A stretch of DNA of 39,113 bases from Candidatus Uhrbacteria bacterium (GTDB lineage: Bacteria; Patescibacteriota; Patescibacteriia; JACQRZ01), in NCBI GenBank assembly GCA_016206235.1, contig JACQRZ010000019.1, positions 1 through 39,113 of the forward strand, in the 5' to 3' direction. Positions 2,741-19,278 of the stretch are shown here, piece after piece. The notes beneath the pieces are model-generated. The model was not told the origin of the DNA, made no database searches, and saw only the letters and a program-made list of their open reading frames with translations. A program made the position numbers and the translations under genes. The stretch's first letter is position 1. The number at the start of each line of letters is the position of its first letter.

Positions 2741-3814
2741 ATGGATACCGCCCAAAGTCTTATCTTCAAAAGACTCCTAACCGATGCCGCAAAAAAAGAG
2801 GCATCTGATTTGCACTTAAGCGTGGGATCCCGTCCCATGATTCGCGTCGATGGCGCACTGCGTGTTATGGACGATGAAGATATGATGACGCAAGAATCAC
2901 TCAAAGGTATTGTTGACGCAGTAACAACCGATGAGCAGCGCGCAGAATTAAACACGAAAAAAGATCTTATTTTTACGACCGTTTTTGACAATCGCATTCG
3001 CGCAAAAATCCATATTTTTTTTCAAGAAGGATTTTTTACCGTATCGCTGCGCTTCTTGAGTGTGAACGTAAAAACATTGCGCGAGATGAAGTTGCCCGAA
3101 AGCCTGTTTCATTTTACGCATCTTCAAGACGGACTTGTCATTATTGGGGGAGATAATGGTTCGGGTCGAACAACGCTTGCGGCCGCTTTTCTTGAAGAGA
3201 TTAATCGTTCGAGCGTAAAACATATTCTCACAGTGGAAGATCCGATCGAGTACAATCTGGTAAGCAATAAAAGTATTGTCAATCAGCGAGAAGTTGGAAG
3301 AGACGTGCCATCAATTGAGGAGGGGTTAGTATATGCGCAAAAAGAAGACGTCGACGCAGTATTTATATGCGATCTTGGAAATGAGAGAGTTATTCGAAAG
3401 GCGCTCGAGCTTGCCGACGCCGGCATTCTCGTGTTTGTCATTATGAATACGAACTCGTCATTGACTGCAATTGAACGGATCATTTCGAGCTTTGATGAAC
3501 ATGAACAAGTATTGATTCGGGAGCTTTTGGCTCAAGTATTGCGTGGCATTATTATTCAGTCGCTCGTGCCAAAAATTGGAGGCAGTTTTGTGACGGTCCA
3601 TGAAGTGCTCTTGAATAATGCAGCGGTAAAGACGTTTATCCAGTCTAATAGACTACAACAATTGCCCCAGGTAATCAAAGCATCACGCGCGGAAGGCATG
3701 ATGAGTTTTGATCATGAACTCGCAAAATATGTGAAAGACCAAGAAGTGACAGCCGAGCAGGCACGTGAAGTCGCAAAAGACAAGCAGACACTAGAGTTAC
3801 TCCTGCACACATGA
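2741..3814 (+). CDS. pilT: PilT-like hexameric secretion-ATPase paralogue with degenerate catalytic motifs
   Basis: 357 aa, collinear with PilT (HILTVEDPIEY Asp box, QREVG). Walker A is GGDNGSGRTT (Lys to Arg). The GEMRD region reads CDLGNE. The His box TLHT reads IMNT. AIRNLIRE reads AVKTFIQS. Confidence 0.75.
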   Translation: MDTAQSLIFKRLLTDAAKKEASDLHLSVGSRPMIRVDGALRVMDDEDMMTQESLKGIVDAVTTDEQRAELNTKKDLIFTTVFDNRIRAKIHIFFQEGFFTVSLRFLSVNVKTLREMKLPESLFHFTHLQDGLVIIGGDNGSGRTTLAAAFLEEINRSSVKHILTVEDPIEYNLVSNKSIVNQREVGRDVPSIEEGLVYAQKEDVDAVFICDLGNERVIRKALELADAGILVFVIMNTNSSLTAIERIISSFDEHEQVLIRELLAQVLRGIIIQSLVPKIGGSFVTVHEVLLNNAAVKTFIQSNRLQQLPQVIKASRAEGMMSFDHELAKYVKDQEVTAEQAREVAKDKQTLELLLHT

Positions 3815-4941: not shown

Positions 4942-5976
4942 TTATTTCGCGTAGAGTTGATGCGCGTAATTGATAACCGATTGTACTCGCCATGGCCGTA
5001 AAAAAGTCATTGACCCAATCACGATTGCAGAAGCCCCGGCTTGATAGAGCTCGCGAACATCTTTTTTGGAAAGGACGCCGCCGCAGCCTGTGATGGGCTT
5101 GGAAAGTCCTTGCTTACGCGCGGTGCGTATCCACTCAGCAACTAAGGGCAAGAGAGGCTTGCCAGAAAGTCCGCCGCCACCGAATTGAGCAAGTGGGGAG
5201 GCAGTGGTTCCAAACAGCTTTTTCCAGTTAATTTTATCTGGCATCGTTCCCCAAGGAAGGGTGTTGGACATGCAAATTGAATCGCAGGCAGGATGATTGC
5301 TTACTTCAAGCGCTGCTGGCACGGGCATGAGAAGGTTGAATTTCAGCTCAAGCGGAATGCCGAGCTCTGAGAAGATATCAAGCAATTGACATGATTCATA
5401 AACAAGTTCATTAATGGGATGTGAGGGATTTACCCCGTTAGAGATAGCCCGCCTAAGTCCTTCGGACGCGCTAGCGCGGGCGAGATCTCTAACGGGGTGA
5501 AGTCCTACATTCGGGCACGATACGTTGATTTGCAAGCCAACCTTTCCATGAAAATCTGGCAGGTACTTTTTAAAAAGCGCTGCAAACTCCTTCGCTTCAG
5601 ATAAGCGCTCCTCAACAGTTTTACTTACTGACATGAATGAGATAAAAAAAGCGTCTGTTCGCTGCTGCCATAACCCCTTTTCAAAAAGTGTTTGTGCCCC
5701 AGGTCCGCTTAATCCGACAGCATTAAGCGCAATGCCCTTGAAGGGTTTTGCAACAATGCACTTTGGTTTAAAGTCTTTTGGCGTGATGCCGTCTTTTTTG
5801 AGAGGCATGTTTCCTGCGCGGGGATGGAGAGTTGTCGTCTTTGCAACAAATGTGCAGCCGCTGAACCGTAAACCAAGGGGTGCAAGTGGCTTATGGTAGG
5901 GATACCCTTCACCAAAAAATCCCATGCACCCAGAAGCGCCAAGCACGTGCCCAAATTCAATTCCTCGTAGTTTCAT
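4942..5976 (-). CDS. pyrD: Dihydroorotate dehydrogenase-like TIM-barrel flavoprotein (class 1-like, divergent)
   Basis: 344 aa. Motifs are GASGCMGFFGEG, LNAVGLSGPG, INVSCPNV and GGGGLSGKPLLPL...GCGGV...AGASAIVIGS. It is adjacent to pyrC. It carries an insertion after the SCPN motif relative to the class 1 enzymes I recall. Confidence 0.7.
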   Translation of the reverse strand: MKLRGIEFGHVLGASGCMGFFGEGYPYHKPLAPLGLRFSGCTFVAKTTTLHPRAGNMPLKKDGITPKDFKPKCIVAKPFKGIALNAVGLSGPGAQTLFEKGLWQQRTDAFFISFMSVSKTVEERLSEAKEFAALFKKYLPDFHGKVGLQINVSCPNVGLHPVRDLARASASEGLRRAISNGVNPSHPINELVYESCQLLDIFSELGIPLELKFNLLMPVPAALEVSNHPACDSICMSNTLPWGTMPDKINWKKLFGTTASPLAQFGGGGLSGKPLLPLVAEWIRTARKQGLSKPITGCGGVLSKKDVRELYQAGASAIVIGSMTFLRPWRVQSVINYAHQLYAK

Positions 5977-12187: not shown

Positions 12188-12646
12188 TTAGAGAGGGTCA
12201 GAGAGGTGATGGAGTGAAAAAATTTCCTGTTCTTCCGTGCTCAGAGTTTTTACCAGAGCAAGGAGTTCATGATATTTAACCTCTTGCGCTGGATCGTCGC
12301 TTTCGTTTATGAAGTGCTCGCCTTCAGACGGAAGATCGGAGAATACAACATGCTTTTTTTCACGGAAGTAATCAATGAGCGTATTGCGTGTGATTTGCCA
12401 GATCCATGATGAGAAGTTGCCAAGATTGGTGTCGAATGTATGGATTTTGTTCGTTACCTTAAGAAAGACATGTTGAGTCAAGTCCTCAGCAATTTCTCTA
12501 TTGAAGAGTCGAACTATGAAAAAACGGAAAATTTGAGAAGCAAAATAATCAAAAATTAAAGCGCCAGCCTGCTGATTTCCATGCTGCCACTGGCAGGCAA
12601 GCGCATTACAATCAAACATTTCTGCACGGTCGTTGCTCATGTTCAT
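12188..12646 (-). CDS. ECF-type sigma-70 family protein, C-terminally truncated (sigma-2 present, sigma-4.2 HTH missing); possibly a pseudogene
   Basis: 152 aa. Region 2 is AEDLTQHVFLKVTNKIHTFDTNLGNFSSWIWQITRNTLIDYFR. The ORF stops at ...LSTEEQEIFSLHHLSDPL, where the sigma-4 HTH should begin. I found no HTH-like continuation in any downstream frame. Confidence 0.6.
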   Translation of the reverse strand: MNMSNDRAEMFDCNALACQWQHGNQQAGALIFDYFASQIFRFFIVRLFNREIAEDLTQHVFLKVTNKIHTFDTNLGNFSSWIWQITRNTLIDYFREKKHVVFSDLPSEGEHFINESDDPAQEVKYHELLALVKTLSTEEQEIFSLHHLSDPL

Positions 12647-12703
12647 AGTGGTATACGGCTGAATTCAAGATGTGGTACAGATATACGATGTATATCTATG
12701 ACG

Positions 12704-12731
12704 AAAAAAAGAACCGCCTGAGTAGCGGCTC
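12704..12731 (-). terminator. Orphan minus-strand intrinsic terminator-like hairpin upstream of the sigma gene
   Basis: The stem pairs 12711-12717 with 12725-12731 (one mismatch) around a 7-nt loop. On the minus strand it is followed by T7 (the A7 run at 12704-12710). No minus-strand gene lies upstream of it. Confidence 0.4.
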
Positions 12732-12759
12732 TTGTCATTGTGGAGATATGTGATATACT
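12732..12759 (+). promoter_or_regulatory. Promoter TTGTCA-N16-(TGa)TATACT for tRNA-fMet
   Basis: -35 at 12732-12737, extended -10 TGATATACT at 12751-12759. The tRNA starts 15 nt after the -10. Confidence 0.55.
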
Positions 12760-12773
12760 CTCAAAATGTTTGA

Positions 12774-12847
12774 CGCGGGGTGGAGAAGTCTGGCATCTCG
12801 CTTGGCTCATAACCAAGAGATCGCGGGTTCAAATCCCGCCCCCGCAA
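12774..12847 (+). tRNA. Initiator tRNA-fMet (anticodon CAT), no encoded CCA
   Basis: C1xA72 mismatch (CGCGGGG/CCCCGCA), anticodon loop CUCAUAA, T arm GCGGG-TTCAAAT-CCCGC, close to E. coli tRNA-fMet. The anticodon stem CTTGG/CCAAG has only two of the three canonical G:C pairs. Confidence 0.9.
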
Positions 12848-16954: not shown

Positions 16955-16996
16955 CTCGTGTCATTATTTTTTGCTATAGTAACTCACACTAGTTAC

Positions 16997-17035: not shown

Positions 17036-17920
17036 ATGTCTTCTCCATCACTCGGCCGGGGACTCGACGCTCTTCTTTCGCGAAAGCTTCCAGTTTCCAG
17101 CACGCCACCTTCGCCACGCCATACCAATGACGGTACGCCTATTCAGGTGTCTGTAGACGGTATCAAGGCAAACAACAAGCAGCCGCGATACAGTTTTAAC
17201 GATGACCAGCTCAATGAGCTTGCCGAATCTATCCGCGAGTATGGCATCATACAGCCACTCGTTGTCATGAGGGAGGGCGAAGGATATCGACTGATTGCTG
17301 GCGAACGCCGACTGCGCGCTGCAAAAAAAATCGGACTCTCAACGGTTCCTGTTGTTGTTCGTGATGCTGCAGACCATGAACGACTCGCCTTAGCGCTTAT
17401 TGAAAATGTCCAGCGCGTTGATCTTAACCCAATTGAATTGGCGTTCGGGTATAAACAGCTTTTGGAGGAGTTTCAAATATCGCATGAAGAATTGGGCAGG
17501 CGGATCGGAAAAAGCAGGCCTGTTATCACCAATACTATACGCATGCTTCAGCTACCCCAAATGATTCAAGAAGGCATTAAGGAGGGAAAGATTAATGAAG
17601 GACATACGCGGCATCTTTTATCTGTCCGTGATGAGGAAAAACAACGAGAGCTTTACAATTCGATCGTTGCAAACAAGCTTACCTATGGTGACGCAGAGCG
17701 TATCATGCGCCAGATGACTGGCAAGCCAGCACCTCAGGCACGAAGAGTGAAGGGAAATCTGAGCCCCGACCCGCTTATTGCACAAAAAGAAGGGCACCTG
17801 CGTGAGTATTTTGGAACAAAAGTGCATATTGAAAAAAACGGCGAAAAGGGTAGTATTGTGATTGATTTTTATTCGCTTGAGCAGATGCGAGATTTGATCA
17901 GTAAGCTTTTAGGTGCATGA
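17036..17920 (+). CDS. parB: ParB/Spo0J partition protein
   Basis: MSSPSLGRGLDALL is the typical ParB N-terminus, followed by the GERRLRAAK arginine patch and an HTH. The ORF-track GTG start at 16958 would translate the repeat array. Confidence 0.9.
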   Translation: MSSPSLGRGLDALLSRKLPVSSTPPSPRHTNDGTPIQVSVDGIKANNKQPRYSFNDDQLNELAESIREYGIIQPLVVMREGEGYRLIAGERRLRAAKKIGLSTVPVVVRDAADHERLALALIENVQRVDLNPIELAFGYKQLLEEFQISHEELGRRIGKSRPVITNTIRMLQLPQMIQEGIKEGKINEGHTRHLLSVRDEEKQRELYNSIVANKLTYGDAERIMRQMTGKPAPQARRVKGNLSPDPLIAQKEGHLREYFGTKVHIEKNGEKGSIVIDFYSLEQMRDLISKLLGA

Positions 17921-18026
17921 ATCCCGTTAGAGTTTTACCAGAATAGTAAATAATAAAGAAACTATGAATAACAGCAAAGATCATTTTTTCGATATCACAA
18001 CAACTATTAAAAAACTCTAACGGGAT
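17921..18026 (+). promoter_or_regulatory. 16-bp perfect inverted repeat spanning the entire parB-murA spacer and enclosing an 18-codon uORF
   Basis: ATCCCGTTAGAGTTTT (17921-17936) pairs with AAAACTCTAACGGGAT (18011-18026). The right arm overlaps the murA ATG at 18025. The uORF at 17964-18020 (MNNSKDHFFDITTTIKKL) ends inside the right arm. Confidence 0.6.
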
Positions 18027-19278
18027 GAAATTTGTTATTAACGGCGGCAAGAAGCTGTCCGGAAGCATTCCCGTTTCGGGAATGAAAAACGCGGCGACAC
18101 CCATTATCGCGGCAGCACTCCTCACAGATGAGGAGTGTATTATTCATAATGTACCCCATATTCGCGACGTGGAAGTTATGCTTAGCATTTTGGAAAGCAT
18201 GGGAAGTCGTGTCGCATGGACGGGTGAGCATGATGTCACGATTTGCACTGCAGGTGCGCGCGCAGATACCATAGATGAAAAGACAATGAAACGTCTTCGC
18301 TCATCCATTCTTTTTATGGGTCCTTTTCTTTCGCGTTTTGAGCATGCATCAATTGCTGAGCCCGGAGGATGTATTATTGGCAACCGTCCCTTACATACAC
18401 ACTTTCATGCTTTGGAAAAACTTGGCGCGACGATTTCGCGAACAAACGGCCATTATGAAATTTCGCGAACCAACCTTCAAGGCACACGTGTAGTGCTTTT
18501 GGAGGCATCGGTGACTGCGACGGAAAACGCGCTTATGGCAGCCTGTATGGCGACTGGCACGACCACGATTATCAATGCAGCATACGAACCTCATGTTGCT
18601 GACCTTGCGAACTTTCTGTGCGCAATGGGAGCAAGGATCGACGGTATTGGTACGTCAACACTTACTATAGAAGGAGTGCATGCCCTGCACGGAACAGAAT
18701 ACACGATTATTCCCGATACTATTGAAGCCGGAACATTTCTTATCCTTGGACTGGCTACCAAAAGTGAAATTACTGTTCAGCATGCACGTTCTGATCACAT
18801 GGATCTCGTGCTGGAATGGCTCTACCAAATAGGCGCACGCTTTGATAGACAAGATGATTCCATTACACTGCGCCTATCGTCTGATTTGCGCGCAGCGCAT
18901 CTTGAATTCTATACGTATCCTCGGCTGCCAAGCGACCTCCAATCAATATTTGGCGTACTTGCAACGCAGCTTCGCGGTACAACGCTCATCCATGAAAAGA
19001 TGTTTGAAGGGCGTCTTGGCTACATTCAAGAATTGATTAAAATGGGTGCAAATGCCGTTATCTGTGATCCGCACCGAGTCCTTATTACCGGACCAACGCC
19101 GCTCTATGGCCAGGAGATACGTACATATGATTTACGTGCTGGAGCCGCGATGATCGTTGCCGGCCTGCTTGCAAGTGGACAGACAATCATTCATGATGTT
19201 GATATTGTTGATCGTGGCTACGAGTCACTCGAAACCCGACTTGCCGGATTAGGCGCAGATATCACACGAGTAGCGTAA
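18025..19278 (+). CDS. murA: UDP-N-acetylglucosamine 1-carboxyvinyltransferase
   Basis: 417 aa with the active-site Cys loop EPGGCIIGNRPL. It is collinear with MurA. Confidence 0.9.
   Translation: MKFVINGGKKLSGSIPVSGMKNAATPIIAAALLTDEECIIHNVPHIRDVEVMLSILESMGSRVAWTGEHDVTICTAGARADTIDEKTMKRLRSSILFMGPFLSRFEHASIAEPGGCIIGNRPLHTHFHALEKLGATISRTNGHYEISRTNLQGTRVVLLEASVTATENALMAACMATGTTTIINAAYEPHVADLANFLCAMGARIDGIGTSTLTIEGVHALHGTEYTIIPDTIEAGTFLILGLATKSEITVQHARSDHMDLVLEWLYQIGARFDRQDDSITLRLSSDLRAAHLEFYTYPRLPSDLQSIFGVLATQLRGTTLIHEKMFEGRLGYIQELIKMGANAVICDPHRVLITGPTPLYGQEIRTYDLRAGAAMIVAGLLASGQTIIHDVDIVDRGYESLETRLAGLGADITRVA

Follow-up and report, generated by a model that had tools for sequence, protein, structure and literature searches.

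Translation start sites buried by base pairing are known from several systems. In the fold-back inhibition of IS10 and IS50 transposases and the coat-to-replicase coupling of phage MS2, the start is buried by an upstream complementary segment. Leader-peptide attenuators such as those of ermC, cat and secM-secA have conserved leaders, stalling peptides and alternative pairings. Among dispersed palindromic repeats, REPs carry a head of the GTAG type, generate no target duplication and are served by the Y1 HUH transposase RAYT (TnpA_REP). Bacterial MITEs that fold within mRNA have also been described, including the Correia/NEMIS elements of Neisseria, ERIC and RUP (PMC10969869). Rickettsia palindromic elements (RPEs) are described as palindromic and located in frame within genes, according to the summary of Ogata et al. 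2000 in PMC10969869.

Here we analysed a hairpin between parB and murA in Candidatus Uhrbacteria bacterium (assembly GCA_016206235.1), on the 39,113-nt contig JACQRZ010000019.1, the whole of which is called the window below. The best explanation overall, with a probability of roughly 0.8, is a mobile-element insertion that rebuilt both the parB stop and the murA start codon, with translational coupling as a likely generic consequence.

The parB-murA hairpin and its insertion footprint

The upstream gene, parB (17036..17920, forward strand), matches Pfam ParB_N, HTH_ParB and ParB_C, and it can be aligned with ParB from relatives at its C-terminal end (...DFYSLEQMRDLISKLLGA). Its reading frame is open from a GTG at 16958, with the ATG at 17036 as the likely true start. 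The downstream gene, murA (18025..19278, forward strand), encodes UDP-N-acetylglucosamine 1-carboxyvinyltransferase (TIGR01072 equivalog, 494.6 bits vs a cut-off of 392.7), with an N-terminus, MKFVINGGKK, conserved in relatives. Between the parB stop (TGA, 17918-17920) and the murA ATG (18025-18027), two perfectly complementary 16-nt arms, ATCCCGTTAGAGTTTT (17921-17936) and AAAACTCTAACGGGAT (18011-18026), enclose a 74-nt loop, and the A and T of the murA ATG lie inside the stem. The junction reads ...GGT GCA TGA/ATCCCGTTAGAGTTTT-(74 nt)-AAAACTCTAACGGGAT/GAAATTT.... An 18-codon uORF (MNNSKDHFFDITTTIKKL, 17964..18020, forward strand) ends at a TAA (18018-18020) within the right arm, 4 nt 5' of the murA ATG. 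This geometry had been reported in an earlier note made from the DNA alone, and the coordinates and complementarity of the stem, its overlap with the start codon and the position of the uORF all proved correct. The earlier note overlooked a second short frame, ORF1 (MNPVRVLPE, 9 codons, 17917..17946, forward strand), whose ATG (17917) overlaps the parB stop as ATGA and which crosses the entire left arm before its stop at 17944-17946.

The comparison with shuffled controls that the earlier note had proposed supports the fold. The 130-nt region has a minimum free energy of -29.8 kcal/mol vs -14.9 +/- 3.0 kcal/mol for 200 dinucleotide shuffles (z = -4.9), none of which folded equally well. The same junction sequence occurs in an independently assembled Logan contig from SRR12113385, so the hairpin is not a binning or assembly artefact. 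No Rfam family matched the hairpin at its gathering score, and the sole match at E <= 1 was a 19-bit chance match (E = 0.41).

The stem consists of the terminal inverted repeats of a 104-bp MITE-type element inserted at TGAA in an ancestral parB/murA ATGA overlap. The element proper (17922..18025, forward orientation) is non-autonomous, has an AT-rich interior and ends in TCCCGTTAGAGTTTT...AAAACTCTAACGGGA. It is flanked by direct repeats of TGAA at 17918..17921 and 18026..18029, the two copies of its target duplication (TSD), so that the left arm (17921..17936) comprises a 15-nt terminal inverted repeat plus the final A of the TSD. The total insertion is 108 bp, or 36 codons. The target TGAA lay inside the A-TGA-A of the ancestral stop/start overlap (17917..17920, forward strand), where the parB stop met the original murA start codon, whose ATG now opens ORF1. 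The left TSD copy preserves both the parB TGA and the old ATG. At the other end, the terminal A of the element (18025, within the right arm, 18011..18026) completes a new murA ATG, to which the right TSD copy gives the T and G, along with the first two bases of codon 2. The arms touch the parB stop and the murA ATG exactly because the TSD and the last base of the element rebuilt both codons.

Removing the element and one TGAA predicts an empty allele, GGTGCATGAAATTTGTTATTAACGG, in which the parB stop overlaps the murA start and GGTGCATGAA is directly joined to ATTTGTT. Such sites are present in relatives. Among same-family genomes, 13 have parB immediately upstream of murA, and neither the stem nor the uORF is found at any of these junctions; the check that the earlier note had named as able to refute it, conservation in close relatives, therefore went against it. 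The genes overlap by 4 nt as ATGA in three of these genomes, are separated by 1-4 nt in four and by 9-37 nt in five. The three overlapping junctions (G004, ...GCATGAAATT...; G012, ...GCATGAAGTT...; G005, ...CTATGAAGTT...) keep the predicted empty site, in genomes of other genera whose MurA is 55-77% identical. G004 reads GAGGCATGAAATTCGTTATCAACGG at the overlap, with G012 and G005 similar, and its empty site TTAGAGGCATGAAATTCGTTATCAACGG matches the joined window flanks TTAGGTGCATGAA and ATTTGTTATTAACGG.

In G006 the parB-murA spacer is 187 nt long and contains an unrelated 16-nt perfect inverted repeat, ACGACTTACGCAGTTG / CAACTGCGTAAGTCGT, with its arms 90 nt apart (L066:2779-2900). The repeat has the appearance of a separate palindromic insertion between these two genes; since it is unrelated, the junction appears to have been hit independently.

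The target duplication is a property of the family as well as of this copy. With the element defined as extending one base outside each CCCG...CGGG core, and ten shifted registers as control, an exact 4-bp direct repeat at the boundary was found in 24 of 40 distinct family members, compared with 0-2 in the shifted registers. Of these duplications, 22 of 24 are TNNA: TCAA (7), TTGA, TAAA and TGAA (3 each), and TCCA, TTCA and TTTA (2 each). The element accordingly shows the features by which MITEs are recognised: a size of 104 bp with no transposase gene and ORFs of only 9 and 18 codons, perfect terminal arms of 15-16 nt with 9-12-nt termini common to all family members, a TSD of fixed length, dispersed copies and empty orthologous sites. 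No movement of the element was observed, and the mobilising enzyme remains a candidate only.

Family members and a candidate parent

The host genome (754 kb, 89% complete) holds five paired copies and one remnant, and the arm sequence always occurs in inverted pairs. Two copies resemble that of the window in ending on a gene start. The first (C17:889-993) has arms identical to those of the window and lies between nfo (endonuclease IV) and pepP (Xaa-Pro aminopeptidase), ending on the pepP start. The second (C18:4196-4304), with ATCCCGTTAGAAATTT arms on both sides, ends on the ftsK start codon, downstream of the rpoC terminator and a promoter-like TTGTCA-17-TATACT site. Both have the flanks seen in the window (ATGA/ATCCCG...CGGGAT/GAAA), and the family termini conform to YCCCGTTAGAR...YTCTAACGGGR. 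The paired change in the C18 arms (GT to AA, AC to TT) was considered as a sign of selection on RNA structure and rejected: in relatives, arms with AAAT make up a common subfamily, so the change reflects a different master copy. An empty site for the nfo-pepP copy was also sought, but synteny is lost in relatives and only the ATGAAAC start context is shared.

A search with the 9-nt core CCCGTTAGA added two GC-rich pairs inside long ORFs, at 5434-5496 of the window and at C44:22543-22611 (63 and 69 nt core to core). The window member is a 65-bp palindrome (5433..5497) within a minus-strand gene (4942-5976) for a dihydroorotate-dehydrogenase-like protein, where its in-frame translation is ...PVRDLARASASEGLRRAISNG.... 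It contains an internal GUCC-UUCG-GAC hairpin and forms a 21-residue insert directly after the SCPNV catalytic loop, a segment absent from the PDB DHODH homologues 1ep1 and 5ue9. The 69-nt C44 member is in frame as PLEVAAPLSSRLVPEGRARLLTG in a DinB-like Y-family polymerase, in an arm frame different from that of the DHODH-like copy; judged by length against E. coli DinB, the insert presumably falls between the DxTG motif and the next helix. Homologues are without either insert. Neither in-ORF copy in this genome shows a clean target duplication, the window member being flanked by TTTA and TGAA. The apparent remnant (C49:2854-2885; L010 ~1855-1885) is a 20-nt element residue flanked by TGAA (ATGAA-CCCCGTTAGAGATTTTAAAG-TGAAG). 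It adds an 8-residue N-terminal extension, MNPVRDFK, 5' of a GTG, to a membrane protein with an O-antigen-ligase-like N-terminus, and this GTG is probably a rebuilt start.

Related elements are found across the class and phylum. Arm pairs at 75-105-nt spacing occur in 10 of 41 same-class genomes, with a single control match. One of them, G039, has 84 forward and 82 reverse arms vs 4 and 2 for the reversed control, or about 83 elements in ~1 Mb. In an even draw across the phylum, pairs at 45-75-nt spacing occur in 12 of 151 genomes, with no control matches. Members range from bare hairpins of 27-31 nt up to about 125 nt. Insertion at start codons recurs in G039 (twice), G006 and one metagenome contig. 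The start codon is rebuilt in the same way at pepP, at ftsK, at two G039 genes (scpB and a TRAM-like gene) and at a G006 glycosyltransferase; an arm ending in G has converted ATGTAC... to GTGTAC... in a metagenomic relative.

Two further loci (L017, G006:C5 ~111600-111800; L018, G009:C24 ~3500-3700) involve tRNA genes. There, arms CCCGTTAGAAAT...ATTTCTAACGGG follow the TTTTCAC loop of a tRNA-Glu UUC type, sit in a split, degenerate outer tRNA-like sequence and enclose an intact tRNA, Val-CAC in G006 and Ala-CGC in G009. The outer and inner tRNAs have stem sequences in common. Excision at the RNA level, as for an intron, was considered and is unsupported: intact tRNA-Glu(UUC) and tRNA-Glu(CUC) genes are present elsewhere in G006, so the outer split tRNA is dispensable, and it looks dead. 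A separate 101-nt Rfam tRNA match in G006 (L121:1674-1774; G006:C9:63073-63173; 46.5 bits), with a long extra arm and uncalled by ARAGORN, is unrelated to the element.

A candidate for the gene-bearing parent is found in G039. There, a ~279-bp unit (L090:3000-3284, minus strand) has 12-nt termini, ATCCCGTTAGAG...CTCTAACGGGAT, identical to those of the family, and encloses a single ORF (MNPVRDTRMFYTYLLQSVKDKRWYTGF...KRFLSLTG, followed by a stop) with a GIY-YIG domain (PF01541, E = 1.3e-15). The ORF begins MNPVRDTRMFYTY..., in the frame that corresponds to that of ORF1. The unit occupies the start of scpB, with 17 nt between it and the scpA stop, and the nuclease frame opens on the host ATG (MNPVR...), crosses the right arm and stops on the TGA of an ATGA, the ATG of which opens the adjoining unit. 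This tandem neighbour is a 121-nt gene-less copy, which retains the first 19 nuclease codons and ends on the scpB ATG; the two units (L090:2880-3290, G039:C19) are chained by ATGA overlaps. We therefore treat the link to a GIY-YIG enzyme as a lead with structural support, with the ~279-bp unit as a candidate parent on the strength of its sequence organisation. To our knowledge, GIY-YIG nucleases are not established transposases.

The window genome contains four small GIY-YIG genes. Two of these (C41:~12500-12830 and C14:~2620-2930) are intact, encode ~86 residues and are bounded by sister arms CCCCGCACTAAC...GTTAGTGCGGGG, within 19-nt inverted repeats CCCCGCACTAACTTACTCG...CGAGTAAGTTAGTGCGGGG. 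The nuclease stop codon lies within the right arm in C41 and just before it in C14, which also has a TCAA duplication. The other two genes, on C1 and C51, lack sister-type arms. None of the four genes in this 89%-complete genome has CCCGTTAGAG arms. A search of metagenomes for relatives that combine a gene with the window's subterminal TTTACCAGAA returned six copies, all of them gene-less and MITE-sized. Two longer arm pairs were tried as autonomous insertion sequences and rejected. The 1,677-nt pair in G039 is dnaA between two separate short elements, and a 2.5-kb pair lacks a transposase, enclosing ClpP, a DHH phosphoesterase and guanylate kinase.

Predicted burial and release of the murA start

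We found no Shine-Dalgarno enrichment in this genome, with an SD-like 4-mer at 45 of 496 starts vs 38 of 496 control positions. Where organisms lack Shine-Dalgarno sites, initiation is signalled mainly by an open start region. The probability that the start codon is paired was dropped as a measure of occlusion, its baseline being 0.58, and opening energy was used instead. For murA, opening positions -13 to +13 around the AUG costs 22.5 kcal/mol, the highest of 487 starts (median 6.8, 99th percentile 19.2), and by the same measure the pepP and ftsK starts fall within the top 12 and top 9. The sequestration proposed in the earlier note is thus borne out as a property of the start, but it reflects the architecture of the element and not an adaptation specific to murA.

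In the modelled mRNA, opening the murA start costs 18.9 kcal/mol when the message is free. A ribosome in the act of terminating at the parB UGA reduces this to 7.0 kcal/mol and one on ORF1 to 3.3-3.7 kcal/mol, so either ribosome is predicted to restore the cost to the genome norm. With a ribosome early in the uORF the cost is not relieved (16-17.5 kcal/mol). The AUG of the uORF itself is predicted to be accessible (6.0 kcal/mol). The earlier suggestion that upstream ribosomes melt the stem is therefore plausible. The most effective melting route would be the parB stop together with ORF1. Since the start is buried and a ribosome terminating at parB lowers its modelled opening cost, murA translation is probably coupled to upstream translation.

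The following sequence of events would account for these values. In the parB-murA transcript the arms would pair and bury the murA start, and because the host lacks Shine-Dalgarno sites, murA initiation would now need upstream translation. Ribosomes ending at the parB UGA, or re-initiating at the old ATG and passing through ORF1, would open the stem and free the AUG. Another route would be offered by the 18-codon uORF, which is accessible, since its end lies 4 nt 5' of the murA AUG. Given the insertion, we consider it slightly better than an even bet, from the modelled energies, that the stem buries the murA start and makes initiation dependent on upstream translation.

The layout of the right arm bears on whether such coupling is particular to murA. 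Of the three frames through the arm (...TCTAACGGGATGA), one ends at the TAA within it, 4 nt 5' of the ATG, another ends at a TGA overlapping the ATG, and the third enters the gene, so coupling to the start follows for any ORF that enters the arm. Such transparency to translation is generic to the element, which is not a regulator evolved for murA. The property would probably descend from a gene-bearing parent that borrowed the host start codon for its GIY-YIG nuclease and returned ribosomes to the host gene via an ATGA overlap. When the loops of the three gene-start copies were shuffled, an ATG-started ORF reached the arm in 28%, 43% and 28% of cases, the 28% being the chance expectation for the window uORF; the uORF alone is thus near chance expectation and by itself is weak evidence. 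The uORFs of the window and C18 copies are homologous, with the same 18-codon length and about two-thirds nucleotide identity. However, 15 of 18 codons have changed, only 2 of those 15 synonymously, and the peptide is not conserved. If the uORF is relevant, it acts through being translated and not via its peptide. An ORF runs into or near the right arm in 5 of 6 start-codon copies, which is suggestive of selection for coupling but not decisive.

These observations also bear on the earlier reading of the stem and uORF as an attenuator, or a translational-coupling device, acting at the first committed step of peptidoglycan synthesis. A dedicated cis-regulatory device, whether a leader-peptide attenuator or an evolved coupling hairpin, would tune MurA to upstream translation or to a signal sensed by the uORF. 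It would fit the exact geometry, the most occluded start in the genome and an accessible uORF AUG with its stop 4 nt from the murA AUG, as well as the presence of envelope/division genes (murA, ftsK) behind two of the three gene-start copies. Yet the stem and uORF are missing at all 13 of 13 same-family parB-murA junctions, while the same element precedes pepP as well as ftsK and has relatives within ORFs, as expected of a dispersed mobile repeat. The TSD and empty site show insertion, the uORF peptide is unconserved with comparable uORFs in 28-43% of shuffled loops, and neither an Rfam match nor an alternative anti-stem structure is evident. A device dedicated to murA is largely refuted by its absence in relatives, and we regard it as very unlikely.

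The coupling proposed for the inserted element depends on the left arm being part of the murA message. If a promoter within the AT-rich loop drove murA, the left arm would be off the murA mRNA, the stem would never form and murA would be uncoupled from parB. The loop is about 30% G+C, AT-rich DNA often yields fortuitous promoters, and some MITEs, such as Correia elements, supply promoters (PMC10969869). However, a consensus scan of 17921-18025 found no sigma-70-like site, and no promoter-like hexamers are conserved among the three copies. In C18 the promoter-like site is located 5' of the entire element, which is therefore transcribed through at that locus, and the ancestral arrangement at parB-murA was an operon with overlapping codons. 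We consider a loop promoter improbable.

Least probable, and in our judgement only marginally plausible, is a hairpin that serves as an RNA-processing or stability site, separating the parB and murA messages or stabilising one of them. A long perfect duplex in a co-transcribed spacer would suit such a role, and Correia hairpins in Neisseria are cut by RNase III (PMC10969869). Against this, a six-frame search of the 89%-complete genome detected no RNase III domain (PF14622, PF00636), in a search whose control set was positive in only 8 of 14 genomes. The 16-bp duplex is also short for RNase III, and a cut in the right arm would strip murA of its start context. The insertion with generic coupling remains the preferred reading.

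Implications and relation to known systems

In the literature covered, which is incomplete, we found no published MITEs or palindromic elements in CPR/Patescibacteria and no inverted-repeat mini-elements bearing GIY-YIG genes. Taken together, the sequences are consistent with a Patescibacteria-wide, apparently undescribed family of tiny mobile elements built for translation transparency, a broader proposal that we hold tentatively and rate somewhat below even odds. Its ~279-bp form would insert at TNNA, often the TGAA of an ATGAA start, borrow the host start for an ~86-residue GIY-YIG nuclease and return ribosomes via an ATGA overlap that its last base helps to rebuild. Gene-less derivatives would keep this wiring, leaving the host start dependent on upstream translation; because they keep it, they could sit on the starts of essential genes or in frame within them. 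If true, the family would be tolerated in genomes with almost no spare DNA, at the price of this dependence.

At murA, a selfish element occupies the 4-nt stop/start overlap of a streamlined, Shine-Dalgarno-less genome without killing the essential gene downstream. The survival of murA may be explained by the regeneration of both codons, leaving a structure that terminating ribosomes could open. For annotation, a strong hairpin with a uORF before an essential gene is easily misfiled as a riboswitch or attenuator; at murA it was left by a mobile element. Should the GIY-YIG link prove correct, the autonomous element would be unusually small and would use a nuclease class not known for cut-and-paste transposition. 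The in-frame inserts in DHODH and DinB add loops of 21-23 residues and thereby generate protein variation in CPR bacteria, as a counterpart of the Rickettsia palindromic elements.

The element resembles Correia/NEMIS, ERIC and RUP in that all are about 100-150 bp, with terminal inverted repeats, a short TSD, many dispersed copies and no transposase gene. The known elements are co-transcribed with their neighbours, as is predicted here, and their hairpins alter expression. Unlike those elements, the copies described here have YCCCGTTAGAR arms and a 4-bp TNNA duplication instead of TA, and they land on start codons, which they rebuild with their own last base. The candidate parent carries a GIY-YIG nuclease and not a DDE transposase, and RNase III was not found. 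Correia elements in particular are defined by 26-bp terminal inverted repeats, a TA duplication and RNase III cleavage; the arms and TSD differ here and RNase III was undetected in the 89%-complete genome, which places the element outside that group.

The similarity to RPEs is one of behaviour only. Both are palindromic and interrupt unrelated housekeeping genes in frame, so that the proteins gain additional peptide segments, and RPEs likewise occur in intergenic and RNA-gene contexts in reduced genomes. The present family is presumably unrelated to them in sequence, belongs to the Patescibacteria/CPR phylum, is shorter (27-125 bp), and has clear TSDs and a gene-start subclass. With REP/REPIN sequences it has in common a short, palindromic, high-copy and non-autonomous form, and REPs sometimes form doublets of ~100 nt that fold into long hairpins. 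The 4-bp TSDs and the CCCGTTAGA head separate it from the REP/REPIN-RAYT system, and the only gene-bearing relative found encodes a GIY-YIG protein.

At the level of translation, the locus resembles the ermC, cat and secM-secA attenuators in having a short ORF upstream of a stem-sequestered start, and in those systems the position of the ribosome on the leader decides accessibility. It differs in that its leader is not conserved with the gene and has neither a conserved stalling peptide nor an evident alternative pairing. A mechanistic parallel to a start freed by translation is with IS10/IS50 and MS2, where translation across the upstream segment, or its absence from the transcript, frees the start. 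Unlike in those systems, the occluded start here is that of a host gene, and the stem pairs one end of the inserted element with the other.
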